A stretch of 64,000 nt of DNA. Source: an uncultured Bifidobacteriaceae bacterium (GTDB lineage: Bacteria > Verrucomicrobiota > Verrucomicrobiia > Limisphaerales > UBA11358). The stretch spans positions 12,341-76,340 of the forward strand of contig CAZZPE010000007.1 in the NCBI GenBank assembly GCA_964655855.1, written 5' to 3'. Below, in pieces: positions 16,935-53,724 of the stretch (its first letter is position 1; each line of letters opens with the position of its first letter). The notes beneath the pieces are model-generated. The model was given only the letters and a program-made list of their open reading frames with translations. It did not search any database and was not told the origin of the DNA. The position numbers and the translations under genes are program-made.

Positions 16935-17744
16935 TCACGCCGCTTGCCGCCGGATTGCGCCATCCGCCTCCATTCTGGCGACGAGCGGGAAAACGTCGCG
17001 TTGCAGGCAGAACGCCACGTCGTCGCGCAGTTCTGGAATTGCCAGCAGCCGCCGTGCGTTCGTGGAAGTCTGAAACGCGCCCGCCACATCCGCCTTTGCC
17101 TGCGCCCACGCGCGCCGGGCGATTTCTGCTGAATCAGATGTTTTGGCAGGGACGGCGCGCTGCGCCGTCCGGTTATCGCAGCGCGATGACCCTGCCTCCA
17201 GCAATTCGCACAGCGCGCCCGCCGCCAGCGCGTCCTCCAGTGCCGCGTCTTCGTGCGTGCCGGCGCAGACGAGCAGCACCTCCGCCGGCTGAAGCTTTCT
17301 GATGAATTCCGCCGTCGCGCCGAGATTCAAAAAGGAACCGGCCAGAACCGTCTTTGCGCCCGCGCAGGCGCGCAAGGCGCGGGTGCCGTTCGTCGTGGTG
17401 GAAACAATCGTCCGGCCGCGCACCATTTCGGGCGTGCATTCGCGCGGCGAATTGCCGAGGTCAAAATCAATTCCGCCGGTCTGCGCGGCACGGATTTTCA
17501 CGCCGCCCCGCTCGCCACCGAGTAAAATGGTTTCTGCTTTCCGCTTTCCGCTTTCCGCTTTCTTGAAAGCCAGCGCCTCGGCGATTTCGCTGACCGGAAC
17601 GACGGCCGTCGCGCCGTTGTGGAGCGCGGTCACAATCGTGCTCGTGGCGCGCAGCACGTCGAACACGACGCAGCACGTTTCGCGCAAATCGCGCCGGGCG
17701 AGCGCGGGCAGTTCCGCCGGCGTCAGGATGGTTTCAATTTTCAT
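16935..17744 (-). CDS. comB: 2-phosphosulfolactate phosphatase family protein
   Basis: ComB motifs: CVVFDVLRATSTIVTALHNGA, LLGGERGG, FDLGNSPRE. Contains an in-frame heptamer repeat at 17531-17564. Confidence 0.75.
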   Translation of the reverse strand: MKIETILTPAELPALARRDLRETCCVVFDVLRATSTIVTALHNGATAVVPVSEIAEALAFKKAESGKRKAETILLGGERGGVKIRAAQTGGIDFDLGNSPRECTPEMVRGRTIVSTTTNGTRALRACAGAKTVLAGSFLNLGATAEFIRKLQPAEVLLVCAGTHEDAALEDALAAGALCELLEAGSSRCDNRTAQRAVPAKTSDSAEIARRAWAQAKADVAGAFQTSTNARRLLAIPELRDDVAFCLQRDVFPLVARMEADGAIRRQAA

Positions 17745-18649: not shown

Positions 18650-20881
18650 TTATTTCAAGTTGTAGCACGCCCAAAGATGGACGCGGTGGAACACGCGGTC
18701 GCCGATTTTCACGTCCTGCTCGCCGAGGTCGGAGACGGAGGCAAATTCCTGCGCGATGCGCGGCGGCAGCAAGTCCGGCGCCGGCGCAATGCGGGCCACC
18801 GGCTCATGCGCCAGCCATTTCCAAACCCAGCCGCTTTCCAGTTTGTAAAGGCCGGCCTCGGAGACGAAAATGGCGCTCTGGCCCTGGCGCCGGGCGCGGT
18901 AGTTGTATTCCGACCAGAAATAAAACTGGTTCTCCGGCTCGTCCGAATCCGCGGAATAAACCAGCGGGCCGGATTTCAGCGCGTCGCGCGCCTGCGGAAT
19001 GTAAAATGAATACAGCCCGGTGATGCCGTAATGCCCGGCGATGATGAAGGCGGGCCGGCCTTCGGCGGCGAGTTTTTCGCGTGCATTTTCGACGAGCGTG
19101 GCGGCCACGTCCCACGCGCGCACGCGGCGCAGCGGGTCAATCTCACCGGGCAGCGGCTGTCCGGCAATTCGGGAGACGAGGTTGCTTTGATACATGATGG
19201 CGATGGCGAAAATGCCCAGCGCCACGCCGGCGGCGAAAAACGGCTTCGCGGCGCGGCGGCGCTCGTTCCAATAAACCACCATCAGGCAGAACATCGGCAG
19301 CACGGCGGGCGCAATCCAGTTCGGCAAAATGCGCGAGTGAAACGACCAGAGGAAATGGCCGATGAAAACCGGCGCGCCCATGCAGAAAAAATAGAGCCAA
19401 AGCGGGCGCTCGCGGCGGAATTTCCAGAAGCCGATCATCGCCCAGATTGCGCCGGCGAAGAAAACGGGATTGAGCAGCGCGAATTCCTGAAAGATGAAAT
19501 CCCAGAAGTAGCGCAGCGTCGGATGCCACTGGCCGTGGAGTCCGGCGTTGCCGGCGACGTGCGTGGCCGTGATCCAGCCGTGCCGCGAATTCCAGATGAC
19601 GACGGGCAGCGTGCAAATCAGGAAAACCGCCAGCGCGAGCCACGGGCCGGGCCTTCGCAACTGAATCCGCGCCGGCGGATGGAGCGCGAGGAAAATGCCG
19701 AAACAGACGATCAGGTAAAGCGCGTTGTATTTGCAAAGGAAGCCGAGTCCCATCGCCAGACCGACGATGAGCCAGTCGCGCGTTTTGCCGTCCGGCTGCA
19801 CCGCGCGCCAGCCCGCGACCAGCGCCCAGGTCCAGCAGAGGACCAGCGGCGGATCAATCGTCATCAAAATCGTGCCGATGCCGAGCAGCGGCGTGGCGGT
19901 GGCGGCGAGCAGCAGACAGAACGACGGGCGCGCGCCGATTTCGCGGGCCAGAAAACGGAGGAGCAGCAGGCTCGTGATGGCGGCGAACAGCGGCGAGAAA
20001 TAGCGGACGCCGAATTGCGTGTCGCCAAAAATCGAGGTGCCGGCGAACTGGATAAACGCGATGCCCGGCGGCTTGCTGTAATACGACAGCGCGGGATGCT
20101 TGGACCAAATCCACTGATACGCCTCGTCCTGGCTCAATTCGATGGCGCCGCTGGCGAGATAAATCCAGCGTCCGACAAGCATGGCGATGATTAAAATGGT
20201 GCCGAGGCGAAGCCACTCCAATTCGGAGTTGGGAGTCGGGAGTTGGGAGTTGGGGGATTCCGCATTCCGCACTCCGCGTTCCGCATTGACGAGCGATGGC
20301 AATTGCACGTGCCAGAGCGGGAACCATTTTTTTCCGATCCAGTTCCACGCGGCCTGCAATCCAATCACCCCCGCCGCCGCGTAGCCCGCGCCCAGAACCG
20401 CGCCGGCCAGAACGTCGCCCGGATAATGCACGCCGACATAGACGCGCGAGAAGGAGACGGCCAGCGCCATCGGCAGCATGAACCGCCAGCTTTTGGGATA
20501 AAACAGGAACGCGACCATCGTGGCGGAAAACCAGTTGGCGGCGTGCGCCGACGGCATGGAGCCGGAGGCGGTGCAGCCGAGACGCGCGATGGCATCCGTC
20601 AGCGCCATGCACGGCCGAGGCCGGGCGACGGCGTGTTTGATGATGTTGATGACGAGCGCGTTGCCGAGCAGGGAGACAAAGGCCATCGTCAGCGCGCACA
20701 GCCGGGCGCGGGTGCTGCAAAAAAGCGCCGCGACAAAACCGATGAAGACGGCGAGAACGAACCACCGCATTACATCGCCGCCACCGCTCAAAACCGGCAT
20801 GAGCCGGTCGAAGAGCGGGTTGCCCAATGACCGGTTCATGAAATGAAACAGACTTGTGTCGAGTGTTTGCAGCCAATGCAT
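18650..20881 (-). CDS. Fusion protein: N-terminal PAP2 phosphatase plus GT39/ArnT-like (GT-C) glycosyltransferase
   Basis: PAP2 motifs: KHAVARPRP, SMPSAHAANWF, SRVYVGVHYPGDVLAG. The rest is a polytopic PMT_2/ArnT-like region (DEAYQWIWSKHPALSYYSKPPG...). The linker is encoded by a heptamer repeat element at 20219-20286. Confidence 0.7.
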   Translation of the reverse strand: MHWLQTLDTSLFHFMNRSLGNPLFDRLMPVLSGGGDVMRWFVLAVFIGFVAALFCSTRARLCALTMAFVSLLGNALVINIIKHAVARPRPCMALTDAIARLGCTASGSMPSAHAANWFSATMVAFLFYPKSWRFMLPMALAVSFSRVYVGVHYPGDVLAGAVLGAGYAAAGVIGLQAAWNWIGKKWFPLWHVQLPSLVNAERGVRNAESPNSQLPTPNSELEWLRLGTILIIAMLVGRWIYLASGAIELSQDEAYQWIWSKHPALSYYSKPPGIAFIQFAGTSIFGDTQFGVRYFSPLFAAITSLLLLRFLAREIGARPSFCLLLAATATPLLGIGTILMTIDPPLVLCWTWALVAGWRAVQPDGKTRDWLIVGLAMGLGFLCKYNALYLIVCFGIFLALHPPARIQLRRPGPWLALAVFLICTLPVVIWNSRHGWITATHVAGNAGLHGQWHPTLRYFWDFIFQEFALLNPVFFAGAIWAMIGFWKFRRERPLWLYFFCMGAPVFIGHFLWSFHSRILPNWIAPAVLPMFCLMVVYWNERRRAAKPFFAAGVALGIFAIAIMYQSNLVSRIAGQPLPGEIDPLRRVRAWDVAATLVENAREKLAAEGRPAFIIAGHYGITGLYSFYIPQARDALKSGPLVYSADSDEPENQFYFWSEYNYRARRQGQSAIFVSEAGLYKLESGWVWKWLAHEPVARIAPAPDLLPPRIAQEFASVSDLGEQDVKIGDRVFHRVHLWACYNLK

Positions 20882-24435: not shown

Positions 24436-24468
24436 GTCACAGAACCGCACCGTGACATCATAAGCCAT
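24436..24468 (-). pseudogene. ~30-bp remnant of a four-helix-bundle (23S rRNA IVS protein family) gene
   Basis: 24436-24463 matches 26877-26904 at 27 of 28 positions (gtcRcagaaccgcaccgtgacatcataa). It encodes YDVTVRFCDR, as in the intact gene 26322..26981. Confidence 0.5.
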
Positions 24469-26321: not shown

Positions 26322-26981
26322 TCAACTTTCGATGACCGCCGTGCCTGCTCGCCGCTGGCAGCGTTTCCGGTAGAGCCGTTCCGTGAAACCGCCTTCTTTT
26401 TCAAAGGCAGCCGCCTGCGCCGCCACCTGACGGCTCAACAAACTGCTGGCCACCATGATGAGCGCCAGGGCGCCGTTGGCCGCTATCTCTGGATAGGTGG
26501 GCTGTGTGGACACTGTGGACTGGATGGACTTTTGTTTTTCGCCTCGTCCACCCTGGCCGGTCCGTCCACTCCGTCCATTTTGTCCATGCACCGCCTCCAC
26601 CCAGGCCGCCACGTCATCTGCTGTGGCGGGACGCCGTGCTATCAGATCAGCCCGGCGCGCGTCCTCGCGCGGCCACTGCGGCAGCCCGCGTTGCCGCAGA
26701 AAATCTTCATAATCCAGACGCAGCTCCTCCAGGCTGGCGCGGGCCACGTTCGTGAGCTTGAGTTCCATTTTCTTGGACGTGCCGCTGGCCTGGCTGCCCT
26801 CGGCAATGTTCTGCACGCCCGACCGCGCCGCCTGCACCATCTGGTCGTGGGTGCGGCTGCGCGGAGAAATGTAACGGTCGCAGAACCGCACCGTGACATC
26901 ATAAACCAATTGTGCCACCTGAAAGCTTTTCAACTTCCGATAACCGCCGTGCAGGGGAATCAATTTTTCTGTGTCATTCAT
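26322..26981 (-). CDS. Four-helix-bundle protein (23S rRNA intervening-sequence protein family), long form with suffix domain
   Basis: YRKLKSFQVAQLVYDVTVRFCDRY, QMVQAARSGVQNIAEG and LEELRLDYEDFLRQRGL motifs. The internal linker (about 26500-26590) is built from short tandem repeats (tgtggacac tgtggactg; gtccac/gtccat units). Confidence 0.7.
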   Translation of the reverse strand: MNDTEKLIPLHGGYRKLKSFQVAQLVYDVTVRFCDRYISPRSRTHDQMVQAARSGVQNIAEGSQASGTSKKMELKLTNVARASLEELRLDYEDFLRQRGLPQWPREDARRADLIARRPATADDVAAWVEAVHGQNGRSGRTGQGGRGEKQKSIQSTVSTQPTYPEIAANGALALIMVASSLLSRQVAAQAAAFEKEGGFTERLYRKRCQRRAGTAVIES

Positions 26982-27041: not shown

Positions 27042-29444
27042 CTATTTTCCTGCAATGAGCCGCCGAAAATGAGCTTCTGTCTTCGGTCGCATCGCAATGA
27101 TGTCGTTCTCCAGTTTTTCGATTTTCAAATACTGTGCATCAACCACTTTTTGTCCATCTTCGGTCGGTTTGCTATCTATCAGAGTTTGCACCCGGTCGCA
27201 CGTTCTTACGTATTGATCGCAGGTGTTCACAATGACTCGAACATCATTTTCAATATCTTGTGGCAAATAGATTTTGTTAAGTTCAAAAGTCTGCCAGAAT
27301 TGGTTCACATCAGTTTGAAAGATCTGTTGCCTAGCCCGCAGTTTCTCCATGTTCTTGTCCTCGATAAGAAGGGCGCAATCTTGGTATGAGCCTATAATTT
27401 TAAGGTAGCATGGCCAGATTGCTGATGCCGCCGTCGCCGCTCTTTCCAAATATTTGGCCGACACTCCAGTGCTTGGGTTCGGCCTTAAATGGTCAACCCT
27501 TTTGCATTTAGGACAGGTCACGCTAATTGCTGTTGCCTGTGTCAGAAAAATAAATCCGCAGTGAGAGCACTTGTGTCCCATCTTGCCGTCAAATACTGGC
27601 GCAATGGAAGCAGTTAAAAAATCCCATGCAGAATCGGGAAGCAACAAGAATTCAAATTCCACTTTTTTTCCCGACGTCAATTCAATATAGCCCTTGCCAT
27701 AGCGCTCACTCTCCTTTTCATGGACTTCAAAATTTGGCTTAAATCTCAAAACTTGCTGCCACTCGTGCATGTCCTCGTCGGCTTCGATATTTACTACGGC
27801 TTGCTTTTGGCCAATATTTAACTCTGATGAAACAGGCACAATTCCGCTCCCTTTTATCAGCTCATCTGGCTTGAGCGCCACTGCTACTCGGCGAATTCTC
27901 ACTACCTTGCTTCCAAAATTTACCGCTTTGATGGTAAGAAGCCCCTGCCTTGTATTGGTATTTTCCAATGCCAAACTTGCCGTAACTTCCAATTTGCTGC
28001 CATGATTTGTGCGTTCTGTTCCGCGTCTCGGATTGAGGGTTTGCTTTTTGAATTTCCGTTCTTCGTAGATTAGAAACCTGTTTAACCTTGAAAGTTGCTG
28101 ATTACCCAATTCGTTCAATGAAGTGATTGCGTGCGGCAATTTCAATTTCTTTGAAGCAAAGGCATAAAGGTCAGAATCGGCGAATCCCAGCGATTTTGAC
28201 CTTGGCCAAATTCCTTTTAGTTGTGCAGTTCGGAATTTTTCGGGGTCAGCGTTCCGTAGTCTTGAATTCTTGCTGGCACGCCATTGGCGAAGATAACTAA
28301 TACCCGCCTCCGCCTTCTCTCGGGGAAGTTCTTTATAGGTTGTGAGGCCAAATTCCGCATTAAAGTCTCCCCAAACCCTTGCGTATGCCTTGCCCGTGTT
28401 GCCGCCAGAGACAGTAAGGCGCTCGACAATTTCGTCAACAATTTGCCTTAACTGCCTGGCTGTTTCAGGAGCAATGTGCTGTGGCCCGGGCGAGAACACG
28501 ACCCGCCGTGATGCAGTAGATTTTGTCCCGATCACGATGTCACCTGAACCGGAATGCACAATCTGAACATGGCTTGAATGCTCATTAAGCGCAGGCACCG
28601 TTTTTAGCGGAGTGCCTGTTTCTACACGTTGCAAGGCGGCTTGCTCGGCAGCAGCTTTCCACTGACATAGAAGGGGCGCTGTATATCGCGCCTCGTCGTT
28701 GTCGATAAGCTTTGCGCAGTTTTGGCAGAGCCAGATGCCATTTTGGATTGAAGAGCGATCTACTTGAGACATGCTCGCGTCGTAGCGCGGTCCGCCATGT
28801 GCCGCAGCAGCGATATGTGCCGCGACCCCGACATTGATTGCCTTTCTCGGATTTGTGTGGGGTCCGGTCGTGGGGCATTTGCACGACGGATTTGAACATA
28901 GGAATCCGACGCGCTTTGCCAAGATGTCTTTAACTTTTTGCTGGAAGTCATCTCGCGTATCTCTATCTAGAACGATCTCCTTCTTTGTGGCCGCCTGCCA
29001 ACCCGGTATCCCTGGAGAGTCCAACCGTAGCGTATTTCCGCTTCGGCAAGCTTCCAAGAGCTTTGCATACTCCTGCTCGTTGTTCGGAAGGCGCCAGTTG
29101 ATGTAAAGGAATTGTGCCAGGGAGCCTTTGATTGGAGCGTCGTCAAGCCGCAACGGAATGAAACGGCGGTCCTTATTCAGCGGGTCACGAAACCTGAACG
29201 TGCCCAATTCCAATTGTGCCCAATCAGACCCAAACGCATTTTCCGACATGCAAAGCACCAACACACGCGATCGTTCTAGCGCTTCCTCAATCTTCGCTGG
29301 GATGCTATCCCCAGGTTTGATTTGCTCCTCGTCCAGCCACACGCGCACGCCGTCCTTCTTCAAACGCGCGGCCAGTTCGCGCACCACTGGCTTATCCTTC
29401 GTGCTGTGACTCAAGAAAACATCGAATTGGTATTCGTCTGGCAT
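27042..29444 (-). CDS. TIR domain - HNH nuclease - large uncharacterised C-terminal region (800 aa)
   Basis: aa 6-118 is TIR (FDVFLSHSTKDK, VLVLCMSENAFGSDWAQLELG). aa 183-250 is an HNH/His-Me finger (CSNPSCKC, VAAHIAAAAHGGPRYD, NGIWLCQNCAKLIDND). aa 626-647 is a C4 zinc ribbon (CSHC...CPKC). The DNA is visibly AT-richer than its flanks. Confidence 0.8.
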   Translation of the reverse strand: MPDEYQFDVFLSHSTKDKPVVRELAARLKKDGVRVWLDEEQIKPGDSIPAKIEEALERSRVLVLCMSENAFGSDWAQLELGTFRFRDPLNKDRRFIPLRLDDAPIKGSLAQFLYINWRLPNNEQEYAKLLEACRSGNTLRLDSPGIPGWQAATKKEIVLDRDTRDDFQQKVKDILAKRVGFLCSNPSCKCPTTGPHTNPRKAINVGVAAHIAAAAHGGPRYDASMSQVDRSSIQNGIWLCQNCAKLIDNDEARYTAPLLCQWKAAAEQAALQRVETGTPLKTVPALNEHSSHVQIVHSGSGDIVIGTKSTASRRVVFSPGPQHIAPETARQLRQIVDEIVERLTVSGGNTGKAYARVWGDFNAEFGLTTYKELPREKAEAGISYLRQWRASKNSRLRNADPEKFRTAQLKGIWPRSKSLGFADSDLYAFASKKLKLPHAITSLNELGNQQLSRLNRFLIYEERKFKKQTLNPRRGTERTNHGSKLEVTASLALENTNTRQGLLTIKAVNFGSKVVRIRRVAVALKPDELIKGSGIVPVSSELNIGQKQAVVNIEADEDMHEWQQVLRFKPNFEVHEKESERYGKGYIELTSGKKVEFEFLLLPDSAWDFLTASIAPVFDGKMGHKCSHCGFIFLTQATAISVTCPKCKRVDHLRPNPSTGVSAKYLERAATAASAIWPCYLKIIGSYQDCALLIEDKNMEKLRARQQIFQTDVNQFWQTFELNKIYLPQDIENDVRVIVNTCDQYVRTCDRVQTLIDSKPTEDGQKVVDAQYLKIEKLENDIIAMRPKTEAHFRRLIAGK
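28695..28898 (-). other. HNH nuclease-coding segment of 27042..29444
   Basis: aa 183-250: Cys pairs CxxxxCxC and CxxC bracket AHI...GG...N. Confidence 0.7.
29091..29429 (-). other. TIR domain-coding segment of 27042..29444
   Basis: aa 6-118, including the candidate catalytic Glu79 in SDWAQLE. Confidence 0.75.
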
Positions 29445-30911: not shown

Positions 30912-31306
30912 GGGGGGTTGCTGGATGTCGGAGCCGAACTCACGTCGGCTGCCACGAAATCATCAAAACCCGCCATTTTCAAGGTTCGGGCGCATTTCAG
31001 GCCGGGAAACGGGAGTTGCGGGATGTCGGAGCCGAACTCACGTCGGCTGCTACGAAATCATCAAAACCCGCCATTTTCGAGGTTTGGGGCGCATTTCAGG
31101 CCGGGAAATGGGAGTTGCTGGATGTCGGAGCCGAACTCACGTCGGCTGCCACGAAATCATCAAAACCCGCCATTTTCAAGGTTTGGGGCGCATTTCAGGC
31201 CGGGAAACGGGAGTTGCGGCTGTCGGAGCCGAACTCACGTCGGCTGCCACGAAATCATCAAAAACCCGCCATTTTCGAGGTTTGGGCGCATTTCAGGCCG
31301 GGAAAC
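30912..31306. repeat. Tandem array, 4 copies of a ~99-bp unit
   Basis: The core gatgtcggagccgaactcacgtcggctgc starts at 30924, 31022 and 31121; a 5'-variant copy (ctgtcggagcc...) sits at ~31219. Units are near-identical throughout, with no unique spacers. Each unit has a small hairpin (agccga...tcggct). Confidence 0.85.
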
Positions 31307-31309
31307 GGC

Positions 31310-31605
31310 ATTTCATCAATTTGGATTGCGTCCAAACAATGTCGGTTTGTCCTTTCACCCATTCGTTCTGCCTTTCCGGCGGGGCGTTTGACTCCTTCAT
31401 CAAATCGTCGTGTCCCGGCATCAAGTCGTTGTGCCTCCAACGGGCATCGCTTTGATTTTCCGTCAATTCGTTCAACCTTGGAACAACATCGTCTTGTCCC
31501 TGCATCAAATCGTTTTGCCTCTGAACAATATCGGTTTGTCCTTTCATCAAATCGTTTTGCCTTGAAACAATATCGTTTTGCCCCAACGCAAGACCGGATT
31601 GCCTG
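31310..31605. repeat. Array of ~13 degenerate 21-bp repeats (alternating 42-bp pattern) upstream of FN3 gene A
   Basis: Plus-strand units are of the type aacaatatcggtttgtccttt / catcaaatcgttttgcctctg. All six frames are open across it. Confidence 0.85.
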
Positions 31606-44394: not shown

Positions 44395-45276
44395 GTGCAA
44401 GATTTAATCGCCAAGGCCGGGACGCTGCTGGAAGCCCTGCCGTATATCCAGAAATTCAGCGGTGCGACCTTCGTCGTCAAATACGGCGGCAGCTTCATGG
44501 ACTCGCCCGACGAAACCGTCCGCACCGGCGTCGCGCGCGACGTCGTGTTTCTCGAAGCCGTCGAGATCAATCCCGTCGTCGTCCACGGCGGCGGCAAGGC
44601 CATCACCCGCGCCATGGAAAAGGCCGGATTGAAGGCGAATTTCATCCAGGGCCAGCGCGTCACCGACGAGTCCACGGTGGAAATCGTGGACAAAGTTTTG
44701 ACCGGCGAGATCAATCCGGAAATCGTCAGAACCATCAATGCGCTCGGCGGCCAGGCCGTGGGCTTCGCCGGGCGGGACATTTTCAAGTGCCGCAAGCTCT
44801 GGCTGGACGACCGGGAAAATCCCGGCAAAAAAATTGACATCGGCTACGTCGGCGAAGTCATCGAGGTCAACGTCGCGCCGCTCAAGGAATCCATGTGGTG
44901 CGGCTTCACGCCGGTCATCAGCCCGACCGCGCGCGGCGAGGACGGCAAAATTTACAACTGCAACGCCGACGTGGCCGCCGCAATGTGTGCCATCGCGCTC
45001 AACGCCAAACGGCTCGTGTTCATGTCCGACGTGCCCGGCTTGATGCGCGACCCGAAAGCCCCGGACACGCTCATCGCGCATCTGAAAACCGGCGAGGTTC
45101 CCGGACTGAAATCCGCCGGCATCGTGGACAAGGGCATGATTCCCAAGGTGGACAGCGCCGTCGCCGCCATCAAATCCGGCGTGGAAAAGGTTTCCTTCGT
45201 GGACGGCCGGGTGCCGCACGCCGTGATGCTCGAAATCTTCACCGACAAGGGCGTCGGCACGGAAATCGTGTTGTAA
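44395..45276 (+). CDS. argB: Acetylglutamate kinase
   Basis: FVVKYGGS, VVVHGGG and NADVAAAMCAIAL motifs. Confidence 0.92.
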   Translation: MQDLIAKAGTLLEALPYIQKFSGATFVVKYGGSFMDSPDETVRTGVARDVVFLEAVEINPVVVHGGGKAITRAMEKAGLKANFIQGQRVTDESTVEIVDKVLTGEINPEIVRTINALGGQAVGFAGRDIFKCRKLWLDDRENPGKKIDIGYVGEVIEVNVAPLKESMWCGFTPVISPTARGEDGKIYNCNADVAAAMCAIALNAKRLVFMSDVPGLMRDPKAPDTLIAHLKTGEVPGLKSAGIVDKGMIPKVDSAVAAIKSGVEKVSFVDGRVPHAVMLEIFTDKGVGTEIVL

Positions 45277-45277
45277 T

Positions 45278-45693
45278 TTCCGATTGGCGATTGCGGATTG
45301 CGGATTTGTATGAACCCGGGCGAATTAAAACAGCGGACGAAAGATTTTGGCAAGCGCGTCATCAAGATGATTGAAGCCTTGCCCAAAAACACCACGACGA
45401 CCGTCATTGGCCGCCAATTGCTGCGAAGCGCGACTTCGGTTGGTGCGAATTACCGGGCGGTTTGCCGCGCCAAGTCGCGTGCCGATTTCGTTGCGAAGCC
45501 CGGAATCGTTGAGGAAGAATGCGACGAATCACTTTACTGGATTGAAATGCTGGTCGAAACAAATCAAATAAAGCCGGCGTTGGTTTCAAATTTGGCAAAA
45601 GAGGGCGAGGAAATACTTGCCATTGTCGTCACATCCGCTAAAACCGCACGAATGAAAAACAATCCGCAATCCGCAATCGCCAATCCGAAATGA
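45278..45693 (+). mobile_element. Inverted-repeat-flanked four-helix-bundle gene cassette inserted between argB and argD
   Basis: Left arm 45278-45306 (ttccgattggcgattgcggattgcggatt) and right arm 45660-45688 are inverted repeats sharing a 25-bp perfect core. The whole cassette fills the argB-argD spacer. Confidence 0.45.
45310..45693 (+). CDS. Four-helix-bundle protein (23S rRNA intervening-sequence protein family), short form
   Basis: IGRQLLRSATSVGANYRAVCRAKSRADF and ECDESLYWIEML motifs. The C-terminal tail NNPQSAIANPK is encoded by the right heptamer repeat. Its TGA overlaps the argD ATG (ATGA at 45690-45693). Confidence 0.75.
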   Translation: MNPGELKQRTKDFGKRVIKMIEALPKNTTTTVIGRQLLRSATSVGANYRAVCRAKSRADFVAKPGIVEEECDESLYWIEMLVETNQIKPALVSNLAKEGEEILAIVVTSAKTARMKNNPQSAIANPK

Positions 45694-46979
45694 AAAACAT
45701 TGTTTCAACGCCGCCGCCGATTGTGCGGAATGACTACGAATCCATCCGCGAGCTCTTCGCGAAAAATGTCGTGCCGAGCTACGGCCGCTTTGAACTCGTG
45801 TTGAGTCACGGCGCGGGCAGCTACGTTTTTGACGTCGCCGGCAAACGCTATCTCGATCTCGGTGGCGGCATCGCCGTAAACTGTCTCGGTCACGCGCATC
45901 CGGCCATCACCGGGGCGCTCGTCGAACAGTCCAAGAAACTCATCCACGTCTCGAACCTGTATTTCACCGAGCCGCAGGGCCGGCTGGCCGCCGAAATCGT
46001 CAAACGCACTGGCGCGGGCAAGGTCTTTTTTTGCAACAGCGGCGCGGAGGCGAACGAGGGGCTTTTCAAGCTGGCTCGGAAATTTGGCCACGACGAAGGC
46101 CGGTTTGAAATCCTGACGGCGACAAATTCCTTTCATGGCCGGACGATGGCCGGCATCGCCGCCACTGGTCAGGACAAGGTGAAAAAAGGGTTTGAGCCGG
46201 CGACACCGGGTTTCCGGCACATTCCTTTCAACGATCTGGCGGCGGCGCGGGCGGCGATTTCGCCGGCGACCGTGGCCATTTTGATCGAAGGCGTGCAGGG
46301 CGAAGGCGGCGTCACGCCCGCCACGCCGGAGTATTTGCTCGGACTGCGGCGGTTGTGCGACGAGAAAAAACTGCTGCTGCTCATGGACGAAGTGCAGTGC
46401 GGCTATTTCCGGACGGGAAAATTCCAGAGCTTCCAGCGGATTCTCGAAACTGCCAATCCGCAATCCGAATTCCTGCCCGACGGCGTTTCCATGGCCAAGT
46501 CGCTCGGCGGCGGATTTCCCATTGGTGCGTTCTGGGTGCGCGCGCCGTATGCGGATTTGTTGGGCGCCGGCACGCACGGCACGACCTACGGCGGCACGCC
46601 GCTGGCCTGCGCCGTCGCGCTGAAAATCTTTGAAGTCGTCGAGCGCGAGCGGCTGGATGAAAACGCCCGCAAGCTCGGCGAGTGGCTGAAAAGGGAATTG
46701 GAGCGGCTCGCAAAAGATTGTCCCGGCGTCGTCAAAAACGCGCGCGGCCTCGGCTTCATGCTCGGACTTGAACTGGTGGAAAAGGAAAAAATTCCGGCGT
46801 TTGCCCCCGGCGACAAACCGGCGTCCATTCAAATGACCCACCGGCTGCAACAGGCCGGCGTGCTGGTGATTCCCGCCGGCGCGCAGGTGATCCGCCTGCT
46901 GCCGCCGCTGAATTTGAAGCCGCAGGAAGCCGGCGAAGGCATTGCCAAGATCGAGGAAATCGTCAAATCGCTCGCCTGA
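45690..46979 (+). CDS. argD: Acetylornithine aminotransferase
   Basis: Class III aminotransferase motifs: FCNSGAEANE, LLLMDEVQCG, SMAKSLGGGFPIGA. Contains an aatccgc-type repeat at 46451-46473. Confidence 0.9.
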   Translation: MKNIVSTPPPIVRNDYESIRELFAKNVVPSYGRFELVLSHGAGSYVFDVAGKRYLDLGGGIAVNCLGHAHPAITGALVEQSKKLIHVSNLYFTEPQGRLAAEIVKRTGAGKVFFCNSGAEANEGLFKLARKFGHDEGRFEILTATNSFHGRTMAGIAATGQDKVKKGFEPATPGFRHIPFNDLAAARAAISPATVAILIEGVQGEGGVTPATPEYLLGLRRLCDEKKLLLLMDEVQCGYFRTGKFQSFQRILETANPQSEFLPDGVSMAKSLGGGFPIGAFWVRAPYADLLGAGTHGTTYGGTPLACAVALKIFEVVERERLDENARKLGEWLKRELERLAKDCPGVVKNARGLGFMLGLELVEKEKIPAFAPGDKPASIQMTHRLQQAGVLVIPAGAQVIRLLPPLNLKPQEAGEGIAKIEEIVKSLA

Positions 46980-47842: not shown

Positions 47843-48224
47843 TTTCCTTCAACTTTCGTTTGTGGTTGTGAGGCCCGGCAATGCCGGCGTGGTCTGGCAG
47901 CGGCGGCTTGAACCGTCGTTGTTTTCCAGCCATTGATCAGCGCGCATGCATCAGGCAACGCTGCGACCGTTTTGCCAGGGTCTCCTGTTCAATGTCACCA
48001 GGCCGTCTGGAGGAAACCATCCGGCTTCGCGCCGGCCCAGGGTGACACCACATCGTAAAGCAAACCGAATGCCAAGTTCTAATCCAGATTATTTATCAAT
48101 AGGTGTAATTCTTTATCTAAAACACAAAACGCGCATAACTTATTTATTGCCAACCACTTGCCGGTGCAAATTGTTTTGGGGCGCGGGATCGGGGTTGTTC
48201 CTGTCTACGGGAAAAAACCGGCTC

Positions 48225-48525
48225 TGGGACGGTAATATGTGCCTCTGATACGGGAATATCCGCCTCTGATATTACCGTCTTTGAGGCAGTTCTTGCCGTC
48301 TTGGACACGGATATTACCGTCCCGGCCAACGAGATTATCGCCTCCGTCTGTGATATTCCCGTCTCAATCATCGGGATTCCCGTCTCGGACTCCGATATTG
48401 CCGTCTCGGTCAACGAGATTATCATCTTCGTCTCTGATATTACCGTCCCGGTTATTGAGATTTCCGTCTTTGCCTTGGGAATTCCCGTCTCGGTCATCGA
48501 GATTCGCCTCTCAATGTCACAATTT
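48225..48525. repeat. Array of ~12-13 21-bp repeats upstream of FN3 gene B
   Basis: Plus-strand units: gatattaccgtcccggccaac / gagattatcgcctccgtctgt ... The conserved core is GAnATTnCCGTC, which is GACGGnAATnTC in the gene orientation. Confidence 0.85.
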
Positions 48526-52200: not shown

Positions 52201-53724
52201 ATGCCGGTCTTTTGTGCTATGAATTGGCGTGGCGGCATCATTCAAATTGGCGGCCAGCGCGAGTCGGCTCTTGTTTCAATGAACTTATATTTGAGTCGGC
52301 TCAAGACGGGCGTGTTACGAACTGGAAGGTTTTTTCAGCTAATACAAGTTGCGTTGCCATTGGCAATCGTTGTCGTTTGTTTGTTTGGATATATGTTGGA
52401 TCGCTATTGTGGCATTTTTCGCGATTTGGAATCGGTGTTGCCATCGGTTCAATGGATGCTGTTGGTTTGCCTCGCTGCCTGGTGCGGCACGTTTCTTTTT
52501 CTGACGTTCAACCTGAATGATCTGTTACTGATTGCACTGCTTGTCATCGCGGTGGCCGCGTTTTTCATCGGCTATGCAGTATCTCAACCGGCGATGGATG
52601 CCATCATTCTTTTGGCGGGCGTGACGTTGGGAAAGGGGGTGCGCTTCGCTCTGATGGAAGATGGAAGATGGAAGATAAAAGATGGGGCGGAGAAAGAAGT
52701 CAGAAGTCAAAAGTCAGCAGTCAGATTATTTCTAATTGGGTTGGTTGCTTTGCTGGCGTTTGCGTCATGGTGGCATTTGGATGTGGCGCAACACTTTTAT
52801 CCCGCCGGTGTGCGCTGGACCGGGCTTTGGGATAATCCAAATATTTACGGAATGTTGATGGGAGCGGGGGTGATGCTCGCAATAGGGTTGATTGCAGCAA
52901 AGCAAAAAGCAGAAAGCGGAAAGCTGAAACTATTGCGCTCTTTGCGCTCTTTTGTGGCTATCAAATCCGCAATCCGCAATCCGCAATCCGCAATTCTCTT
53001 CATTGCGGTTTTGATGATGGGGGTGGGATTGTTGTTCAGTTACAGCCGGGGTGCATGGGTGGGGACGGCGGTTGGTTTGCTTTATCTGGCAAAGGTGCAT
53101 GGCAGGTTCAAATGGCGGTCTCTGAAAGTATTTCTGCTTTCTGCTTTCTGTTTTTTGGTTTTGATCTTTGGCGTTTGCTTTTTCTGGAATTCCACATCGG
53201 ACACAGGCCCGTGGTATCTCAAGCGCATGGATTTAAGCCGCGCATCGGCGCAACACCGGGTGTCCGCTTGGCGCGGCGCGGTTCAAATGATGCGGGATCA
53301 TCCGTTTGGCGTCGGCTGGAACAAGGCGGTTGAAACTTACGACAAGAATTATTCGCCGCCAGAAGACGGCGCGGCAGCGATTACCACGAATGATTATTTG
53401 ATGCTGGGAACGCAATTAGGGTTTCCGGGGTTGGTTTGTTTCGTCACTTACGTTGCGCTGTGCTTTCGCAAGTGCGGAGCGCTGAGTGCGGAGTGCGGAA
53501 TTAAAGAACTCCGAACTCCGAACTCCGAATTCCGAATTAAGACGGCTTGTCGCGCCGGTGCTTTAACCATGCTGGTGGCGTTTTGGTTTGATGGAGGATT
53601 GTTCAAGCTGGCAACGGCAGCGGTGTTCTGGATTTTGCTGGAATTGGGAACGGAAATTCAAAAACAGCCCGCCTTCACCTTGTTTCGGCGCGGTTGCGCC
53701 GAAGCTACAACGACAGCGGAATAG
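52201..53724 (+). CDS. O-antigen ligase / Wzy_C family polytopic membrane protein
   Basis: FSYSRGAWVGTAVGLLYL and HRVSAWRGAVQMMRDHPFGVGWN motifs. Its loops are encoded by tandem heptamer repeats. The start is uncertain. Confidence 0.7.
   Translation: MPVFCAMNWRGGIIQIGGQRESALVSMNLYLSRLKTGVLRTGRFFQLIQVALPLAIVVVCLFGYMLDRYCGIFRDLESVLPSVQWMLLVCLAAWCGTFLFLTFNLNDLLLIALLVIAVAAFFIGYAVSQPAMDAIILLAGVTLGKGVRFALMEDGRWKIKDGAEKEVRSQKSAVRLFLIGLVALLAFASWWHLDVAQHFYPAGVRWTGLWDNPNIYGMLMGAGVMLAIGLIAAKQKAESGKLKLLRSLRSFVAIKSAIRNPQSAILFIAVLMMGVGLLFSYSRGAWVGTAVGLLYLAKVHGRFKWRSLKVFLLSAFCFLVLIFGVCFFWNSTSDTGPWYLKRMDLSRASAQHRVSAWRGAVQMMRDHPFGVGWNKAVETYDKNYSPPEDGAAAITTNDYLMLGTQLGFPGLVCFVTYVALCFRKCGALSAECGIKELRTPNSEFRIKTACRAGALTMLVAFWFDGGLFKLATAAVFWILLELGTEIQKQPAFTLFRRGCAEATTTAE

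Follow-up and report, generated by a model that had tools for sequence, protein, structure and literature searches.

Genes of the S23p family (PF05635) occur in intervening sequences (IVSs) of 23S rRNA in Leptospira, Coxiella burnetii and other bacteria. The Coxiella IVS is a 428-nt element that carries an S23p open reading frame (ORF) with heptameric repeats in tandem ahead of the ORF start, and its terminal stem of ~28 bp is cut by RNase III; the ORF is reported to be decaying and not expressed (PMC4990558). The same paper cites the S23p protein of X. campestris as a homopentameric toroid, and also cites an older proposal that the IVS is mobile, with its ORF serving mobility. Insertions in the rRNA of Candidate Phyla Radiation bacteria include both 23S_rRNA_IVP ORFs and ORF-less forms. 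PF05635 has been described as Avd-like (PMC10053308), and pentameric Avd binds an RNA stem-loop beside a template repeat (bioRxiv 10.1101/2023.10.23.563531). Here we analyse a gene of this family that lies between argB and argD, enclosed by two inverted arrays of heptamers, in a 64,000-nucleotide stretch of contig CAZZPE010000007.1 (the whole of which we call the window). Comparison of sequences from many lineages gives good support to a widespread cassette type, in which a four-helix-bundle gene sits inside two inverted heptamer arrays of ~32 nt. Literature searches with the repeat sequences, and for four-helix bundles with heptamer or inverted repeats, found this architecture undescribed outside papers on rRNA IVSs; as a component of mRNA operons, the cassette type is apparently new to the literature. 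The junction in the window is built from the following features.

44395..45276, forward strand: argB (acetylglutamate kinase; PF00696, AA_kinase, E 4e-39)
45271..45306, forward strand: left arm of the inverted repeat, a G/T-rich heptamer array (Tandem Repeats Finder (TRF) period 7)
45310..45693, forward strand: 127-aa four-helix-bundle gene, S23p / 23S-rRNA-IVS / Avd-like (PF05635, TIGR02436)
45661..45696, forward strand: right arm of the inverted repeat, an A/C-rich heptamer array
45690..45693, forward strand: ATGA, the overlap of the four-helix stop and the argD start, read from the sequence
45690..46979, forward strand: argD (acetylornithine aminotransferase; PF00202, Aminotran_3, E 1e-99)

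The argB stop codon, TAA at 45274-45276, lies at the outer base of the left arm, whose units (..TTTCCGA TTGGCGA TTGCGGA TTGCGGA TT) end 3 nt 5' of the four-helix ATG. The right arm (AATCCGC AATCCGC AATCGCC AATCCGA AAT) spans the last 11 codons of the four-helix ORF (NNPQSAIANPK), its TGA and the ATG of argD, and the argD start abuts the outer end of the arm. A repeat search gave arms of 36 nt that are 92% complementary and separated by 354 nt. Within them, a 25-nt core, GATTGGCGATTGCGGATTGCGGATT (45282-45306), is the perfect complement of 45661-45685. We judge the inverted repeat to be non-random because a 21-nt core is confined to the two arms, with exactly two occurrences, one in each, against 0.01 expected from shuffles. 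The four-helix gene is thus bracketed by terminal inverted repeats, as transposable elements and miniature inverted-repeat transposable elements (MITEs) are. A preliminary description of this DNA, made from its letters, had already set out this layout (the argB stop, a 127-aa ORF from 45310 and an ATGA into argD), the perfect 25-bp core and a right arm encoding the last 11 codons, all of which agree with the sequence and, for the genes, with Pfam; its right arm, given as 45660-45688, has to be moved by one base to 45661-45689. A scan for promoters and terminators around the cassette gave no signal above shuffle expectation, and Rfam at gathering thresholds returned no match anywhere in the window, rRNA included.

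The package recurs far outside this genome. Scanning one genome per species yielded at least 577 relatives, from which 80 loci were kept and 77 were usable; a metagenome scan contributed 80 further loci, 70 of them usable, for 147 usable loci in all (L numbers below refer to individual loci). At each locus the interval from start-200 to start+10 was aligned to the reverse complement of the interval from stop-100 to stop+100, and a score of at least 30 was taken as a clear inverted pair. Such a pair was present at 63/77 genome loci and 65/70 metagenome loci, or 128/147 combined. Mean within-locus arm scores were 41.8 (genome set) and 44.8 (metagenome set), compared with 24.5 and 32.5 when arms were paired across different loci and 19 in both sets for the direct orientation. 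The loci come from about ten phyla, with 50-66% protein identity between phyla; the genome loci belong to Verrucomicrobiota, Acidobacteriota, Planctomycetota, Chloroflexota, Cyanobacteriota, Bacteroidota, Nitrospirota, delta-proteobacteria and others. The median arm is 32 nt long (interquartile range 26-37), which is about 4.6 units. Polarity is fixed, the arm that is G/T-rich on the coding strand lying upstream in 75/77 genome and 65/65 metagenome loci. The dominant heptamer has G4 and A5 in 62/63 loci and T7 in 59/63 (consensus KCGGATT), and the downstream array is the reverse complement of the upstream one, at or just past the ORF end. Variant units are mirrored between the two arms, with 967 identical positions against 868 +/- 10 when the order of units is permuted.

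More distant paralogues in the flanks of these loci are bracketed as well, by other units (GAATGAC, AAGAGTT). A cassette with TTTTAGA / TCTAAAA arms is found in a cultured organism, Gloeocapsa sp. PCC 7428, on the finished plasmid pGLO7428.03 (12242-12610; L177), where it stands between a DUF1156 gene and a Swt1-family HEPN gene in an operon that looks defence-type. Roseimaritima sediminicola JC651 (L042) and Nostoc linckia z4 (L080) are further culturable carriers. At L041 (2492-4180), from a Deferribacteres metagenome-assembled genome, three or more tandem copies of the 3' half of the four-helix gene plus the right arm come after a full cassette; this tandem region includes a run of Ns and could be an assembly artefact.

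Across these genomes the loci can be grouped by orthologous site, and each group is kept within one lineage.

Upstream of argD: Verrucomicrobiae
Upstream of dprA, directly after a tRNA-Sec gene: Acidobacteriota
Upstream of dxr: Verrucomicrobiota
Upstream of gatB: Chthoniobacterales
Upstream of an alcohol dehydrogenase gene: Phycisphaerae
Upstream of dinB: Nitrospirota

The cassette is co-oriented with its neighbours and wedged from the stop codon of one to the start codon of the other. In every site group the left arm begins 0-4 nt past the upstream stop codon or tRNA end, and the start codon of the next gene touches or overlaps the right arm at its outer end (..CCGAAAT|G, ..CGTAAAT|G, ..CCAAAT|G). 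The gatB group represents the minimal form, consisting of arm, ATG..ORF..TAA, arm and ATG with zero spacers. A same-strand stop lies near the left arm at 45/63 genome and 63/65 metagenome loci, within 6 nt of the arm at 33/45 and 40/63 of these, respectively. A same-strand start lies near the right arm at 49/63 genome and 49/65 metagenome loci; it falls within -3..+6 nt in 26/49 and 33/49 of them, with a mode of -1. In Acidobacteriota 4 nt separate the end of the tRNA-Sec gene from the left arm (e.g., L005, 2844-2935), and the order tRNA-Sec, cassette, dprA is kept across several genomes. Rfam searches on 20 related loci found only this tRNA-Sec beside the Acidobacteriota cassettes, with no rRNA context. 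The discrete cassette proposed in the preliminary description therefore recurs at unrelated junctions in many phyla, and the stop/start juxtaposition is preserved, as its statement that coupling is left undisturbed had implied.

How the ORF ends depends on the unit. Where the right-arm unit contains TAA (TAAATCG, TAAAATC), the ORF terminates at the first unit; where it does not (AATCCGC), the ORF runs through the arm and gains a tail like NPQSAIANPK. ATGA ends 26/81 ORFs, and 21/26 of these ATGs begin ORFs that are 100 codons or longer. At L017, L034, L039 and L053 the N-termini of the downstream proteins are array-encoded (e.g., MNEQSAIRNPQSAID.., ..ALRIPNSAF..), which means either that the starts have been misannotated within the arms or that the extensions are real and derive from arrays.

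The cassette at the argB-argD site is well supported, by sequence comparison, as old and vertically inherited over a long period. About 70 database relatives are exactly 127 aa long, their identity grades smoothly from 100% to about 65%, and all carry the tail NNPQSAIANPK. The genomes that share the site have ArgB 77-85%, ArgD 73-89% and four-helix proteins 67-89% identical, which speaks against recent mobility. At L003 (four-helix protein 67% identical) the order is argB, four-helix gene, argD, argF; at L007 (83% identical) the cassette begins 57 nt past argB and is followed by argD; and at L001 and L006 an additional gene of 187-197 aa separates argB from the cassette. The junction of the four-helix gene with argD through ATGA is invariant in all four. 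The inserted gene lies at 2289-2931 in L001 and at 1873-2466 in L006. In L001 a gene-less ATTTACG/CGTAAAT hairpin, the outer end of which overlaps the ATG of this gene, stands before it, and a second mini-hairpin comes after it.

Between the window and L003, synonymous sites in the body of the four-helix gene are saturated (proportion of synonymous differences, pS, 0.72) and dN/dS is 0.11; all finite pairs lie between 0.02 and 0.14. Over the same distance the 33 arm-encoded nucleotides are identical at 33/33 positions (30-33/33 among orthologues), and the non-coding left arm differs by 1 nt. Because dN/dS is low and the arms are nearly identical at saturated synonymous divergence, we conclude from these comparisons that purifying selection acts on the protein and on the nucleotide sequence of each arm; the cassette here is therefore no decaying insertion. 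The preliminary description had likened it to a small mobile or selfish insertion, a view that holds for an element class but not for a recent or junk insertion: "selfish junk" does not fit a protein under strong purifying selection with nucleotide-conserved arms. It had also reasoned that the same gene at the same site in relatives without repeats would mark an ancient resident gene. The same site is indeed occupied in relatives, and the repeats are retained there.

The cassette is nonetheless dispensable and variable at argB-argD, to judge from its presence and absence among relatives. An empty-site search turned up six further ArgD relatives without it, 74-77% identical to the ArgD of L003. 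Four of them have no argB upstream of argD, and in L091 argB and argD are kept apart by a hydrolase gene. In L090, the sole true argB-argD junction of the six, argJ..argB is followed by a plain 121-nt spacer without arrays and then by argD. This is the empty site for which the preliminary description had suggested looking, and ORF-less hairpin derivatives of the element exist as well. On a rough neighbour-joining tree of ArgD identity the cassette carriers are not monophyletic, which implies several losses or lateral replacement. Because cassette-free argD genes likewise start (A/G)TGAAAGA, the ATGA is native to argD and not supplied by the element. The T(A/G)A ... TGA seen in the flanks consists of the stop codon of the one neighbour and the ATGA start of the other. 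No clear target-site duplication, for which the preliminary description had also advised a check, was found at the cassette, where the L090 empty site is too diverged for the insertion boundaries to be aligned; nor was there a transposase, the four-helix gene being the sole ORF.

The fold and family membership of the protein are confirmed at the level of profile matches and a structural model. It scores 55.9 bits against PF05635 (cutoff 33.8) and 78 bits against TIGR02436 (cutoff 24). The AlphaFold2 (AF2) monomer model (pLDDT 91) is predicted to be a four-helix bundle with helices at residues 3-22, 28-51, 57-83 and 89-115. The bundle thus occupies residues 3-115, and residues 116-127, which come from the right arm, are predicted to be disordered, with pLDDT <50 at residues 121-127. 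The best Foldseek matches are 2RLD (S23 ribosomal protein family; template modelling (TM) scores 0.80/0.90), 2GSC and Avd, the Avd structures 4DWL and 8UB7 giving TM of about 0.72/0.83 to the model. A profile search of PDB sequences found 2RLD, which has five chains, at E 6e-27, and did not retrieve Avd at E up to 1. Like the cassette protein, the Avd of diversity-generating retroelements has a four-helix fold, and its pentamer is a basic barrel with an RNA stem-loop as ligand. However, the neighbours of the cassette are argB and argD (elsewhere dprA, dxr or gatB), and no reverse transcriptase, template repeat or variable repeat adjoins it. Pfam and NCBIfam give the four-helix family only, with no HUH Y1 transposase, and PADLOC, searched for an anti-phage defence role, matched 0 families. 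The family is very large (at least 7,999 relatives at E <= 0.001 in a protein search). Among 2.9 million viral contigs, only 5 relatives were found.

Judged on its sequence, the cassette is IVS-like by architecture, yet it lies outside the location that defines the IVS family, an rRNA helix. Like the rRNA IVSs, it has an S23p ORF within terminal inverted repeats that can form a stem, it appears to be tolerated in a transcribed host RNA and it has ORF-less versions, and like the Coxiella IVS it has tandem heptameric repeats upstream of the ORF. The 36-nt arms and a 31-pair helix compare with the ~28-bp stem that encloses the S23p ORF of an IVS. It differs in that its host is the spacer of a protein-coding operon, its arms are almost wholly heptamer arrays, part of the right arm is coding and the start codon of the next gene lies in it, and the ORF is under strong purifying selection, in contrast to the decay reported for the Coxiella ORF.

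In our analysis the best explanation, to which we would give a probability of roughly one half, is an IVS-type element whose stem insulates it inside the host transcript. In an argB-four-helix-argD transcript, pairing of the arms would give a stem of ~31-36 bp with the entire ORF looped out, and the base of the stem would place the argB stop beside the argD start codon. The stem may be an RNase III substrate, as in rRNA IVSs, the element being excised or structurally bypassed with the function of the host RNA kept. Ribosomes on the four-helix ORF would traverse the stop-free right arm and terminate at the UGA overlapping the argD AUG, an overlap that could give termination-reinitiation coupling. 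The four-helix protein probably binds the RNA of its own arm or stem, which we propose because the family includes pentameric toroids and the RNA-stem-binding Avd and because selection on it is strong. Consistent with such a stem, the long-range helix appears in both the minimum free energy and the centroid fold of 45255-45715 (z = -5.0). In nine orthologous cassettes at the argD site a 31-pair helix has 95% of its cells paired, compared with 14-47% in registers shifted by 1-3 columns. An apparent extension of the stem into the argB and argD coding sequences is not visibly conserved in the flanks of L003 and L001, and we did not count it.

Several observations weigh against this explanation. 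Arm mismatches of the G.U type are as frequent as those of the A.C type (48 vs 49 in the genome set, 44 vs 44 in the metagenome set; 92 vs 93 in total), and transversions dominate them (225 over the two locus sets together). Covariation at the argD site does not rise above shuffles, with a single compensatory change, in L097, and 21/31 stem pairs never vary among the argD-site orthologues. Complementarity is thus kept mainly by conservation of the arm sequence, and protein recognition or DNA-level processes fit equally. Nor is the invariant GA core of the heptamers necessary for pairing alone, which argues that the arm sequence itself is read. Juxtaposition of stop and start is not the whole story either, because the Acidobacteriota left arm follows a tRNA-Sec gene and not an ORF. 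Finally, the working at the RNA level has here been deduced from DNA sequence.

The symmetric mismatch spectra, and arms that are conserved without covarying, could instead be due to a mobile element that acts at the DNA level, the arms being terminal inverted repeats recognised as double-stranded DNA or as single-strand hairpins. We regard this as unlikely, and we hold it similarly improbable that a trans-acting enzyme, or a mechanism dependent on the four-helix protein, moves or copies the cassette and the ORF-less hairpins in the manner of REP-associated tyrosine transposases (RAYTs) and their REPINs (REP, repetitive extragenic palindromic). The many insertion sites across phyla, the empty argB-argD site with its non-monophyletic carriers, the ORF-less hairpins and arrays in the flanks described below and the paralogues with units of their own all point in this direction. 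However, the cassette has no transposase, recombinase or HUH motif, its protein being a helical bundle of 115 residues. The window does not hold several identical copies, and a phmmer search with the 127-aa protein over its ORFs in all six frames gave no other copy of the subfamily. A convincing target-site duplication was not found, inheritance at each site has been stable through deep divergence, and only 5 relatives came from the viral contigs. The likeness to REP/REPIN and RAYT systems is that they too have a gene between inverted short repeats together with genome-wide hairpin doublets, and that they are long-lived and vertically inherited. They differ in that RAYT is an HUH tyrosine transposase, motifs of which are missing from the four-helix protein, and in that REPs are single palindromic units rather than heptamer arrays; moreover, several four-helix cassettes with different units occur per lineage.

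The reading of the arm sequence that the GA core suggests could also come about if a pentameric four-helix protein wrapped the NNN-GAN-N heptamers of one arm, about five units for five subunits, much as the trp RNA-binding attenuation protein (TRAP) does with its array. This we consider doubtful, and it seems no less questionable that such binding competes with the stem and so autoregulates the four-helix gene and the gene downstream, which would be compatible with the IVS-type explanation. The near-invariance of heptamer positions 4, 5 and 7 across phyla fits this idea, as do arms of ~4.6 units (32 nt median), stand-alone window arrays of 4.1-5.0 units, arm conservation in excess of pairing needs, and solved family members that have five chains or form toroids (2RLD; the X. 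campestris pentamer, PMC4990558). On the other hand, the match of units to subunits would be numerology, Avd binds a short stem-loop and not a repeat array, and ORF-less arrays far outnumber four-helix genes in the window.

That two arrays of a heptamer-microsatellite-rich genome flank a resident gene by chance, as a neutral by-product, is highly improbable: the window does hold 14 period-7 arrays, several of them unrelated to four-helix genes, but both arms are conserved nearly base for base at saturated divergence, the same inverted, fixed-polarity arrangement recurs in 128/147 independent loci, and the order of variant units is mirrored between the arms.

Heptamer arrays do extend beyond the cassette. 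TRF and a lag scan found 14 period-7 arrays in the window, against 0-6 for periods 5, 6, 8, 9 and 10; most are 4.1-5.0 units long by TRF and, by inspection, nearly all of their units read NNN-GA(T/A/G)-N on one strand. The preliminary description had seen the heptamers in the cassette arms, correctly, and had missed these arrays across the window. Three ORFs contain arrays in frame: the ComB-like gene 16935..17744(-) at 17528-17562; a PAP2+GT39-like ORF of 743 aa, 18650..20881(-), with a linker array at 20220-20284 made of a left-type plus right-type hairpin; and a membrane ORF of 507 aa, 52201..53724(+), with seven arrays at 52653-53538. Units of the GCGGATT type are stop-free on both strands, and because 7 and 3 have no common factor, every frame yields one 7-residue peptide repeat. 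From their sequence, the in-frame arrays in these three ORFs may be array-mediated peptide inserts or gene fusions. Two patches in the window show units close to those of the cassette.

52964..52994, forward strand: stand-alone array of the right-arm unit AATCCGC x4.4, in frame in the membrane-protein ORF
46452..46472, forward strand: 21-nt heptamer-like patch gccAATCCGCAATCCGAAttc within argD, coding TANPQSE, read from the sequence

The argD patch (AATCCGCAATCCGAA, 46452-46472) takes the place of a 7-aa variable loop (NVSGGEK/GVPGGET in other ArgDs) with the length unchanged, and in its sequence it looks like a conversion from the nearby arm.

The flanks of the related loci, 331 kb in all, contain 65 more period-7 arrays outside the focal cassettes, or ~2 per 10 kb, compared with 0-8 arrays for periods 5 and 8-11. 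At least 10 ORF-less left-right hairpins with loops of 20-100 nt are formed by these arrays, and some such hairpins abut a start codon, in L084, L039 and L001 (between argB and the inserted gene).

Other repeats of bacterial genomes share parts of this picture. Rickettsia palindromic elements (RPE) and operon-embedded hairpins of the enterobacterial repetitive intergenic consensus (ERIC) and MITE kinds are tolerated in transcription units and even in coding sequences, in which they resemble the window arrays that lie in frame (17528-17562, 20220-20284 and 52653-53538); they have no ORF and are not heptamer arrays. The short tandemly repeated repetitive (STRR) sequences of cyanobacteria are tandem heptamer repeats. 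The TAACTGA repeats of Beggiatoaceae and cyanobacteria are also tandem heptamers, mostly intergenic and often just before starts, and are common to distant phyla (PMC4679880). Unlike STRR and TAACTGA repeats, which are described as direct repeats with no linked gene, the cassette arrays form inverted pairs around one gene family and have a common NNN-GAN-N core.

The window holds two further traces of the family, both of them real, as the preliminary description had reported. A second four-helix gene, 26322..26981(-), has a weak TIGR02436 match and a TIGR04258 suffix domain, and 24440-24463 is a 24-nt exact copy of the 5' part of this gene, 2 kb away. The flanks of the second gene were checked and have no heptamer inverted repeats, contrary to the idea, put forward there for checking, that every four-helix gene is bounded by them. 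The repeats therefore accompany the cassette subfamily and some paralogues, not the whole family. The gene adjoins an 800-aa TIR-domain ORF, 27042..29444(-). The window also has large tandem repeats, with 99/197-nt units (x4/x2) and 21/42/84-nt units (30913-31308; 31404-31584; 48206-48504), the latter overlapping long ORFs on both strands.

Within PF05635/TIGR02436, Avd of the diversity-generating retroelements is the sole understood member, and the role of the rRNA IVS proteins has been a standing question since the 1990s. The fixed cis-architecture described here, with inverted NNN-GAN-N arrays of ~32 nt, fixed polarity and flush stop/start placement, makes the function of this orphan family testable. 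It may also account for some of the surplus of heptamer repeats seen in many bacterial genomes and for unusual peptide inserts like NPQSAIRNPQ in annotated proteins, and it exposes a systematic annotation issue where ORFs end or start inside arrays. A broader and more tentative possibility, towards which we lean less than to disbelief, is that four-helix genes and heptamer arrays together form an unrecognised, phylum-spanning class of element, with an autonomous four-helix form and many ORF-less derivatives, whose stems make them structurally "invisible" and so let them colonise any transcribed RNA. If this were true, rRNA helices, operon junctions and even coding sequences would be accessible to them, the repeats being open in every frame, and the heptamer repeats would have the pentameric protein as their cognate binding factor. 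The rRNA IVSs would then be the first-seen special case of a wider element, and many unexplained bacterial heptamer repeats, array-encoded peptide inserts and gene fusions would be its footprints.

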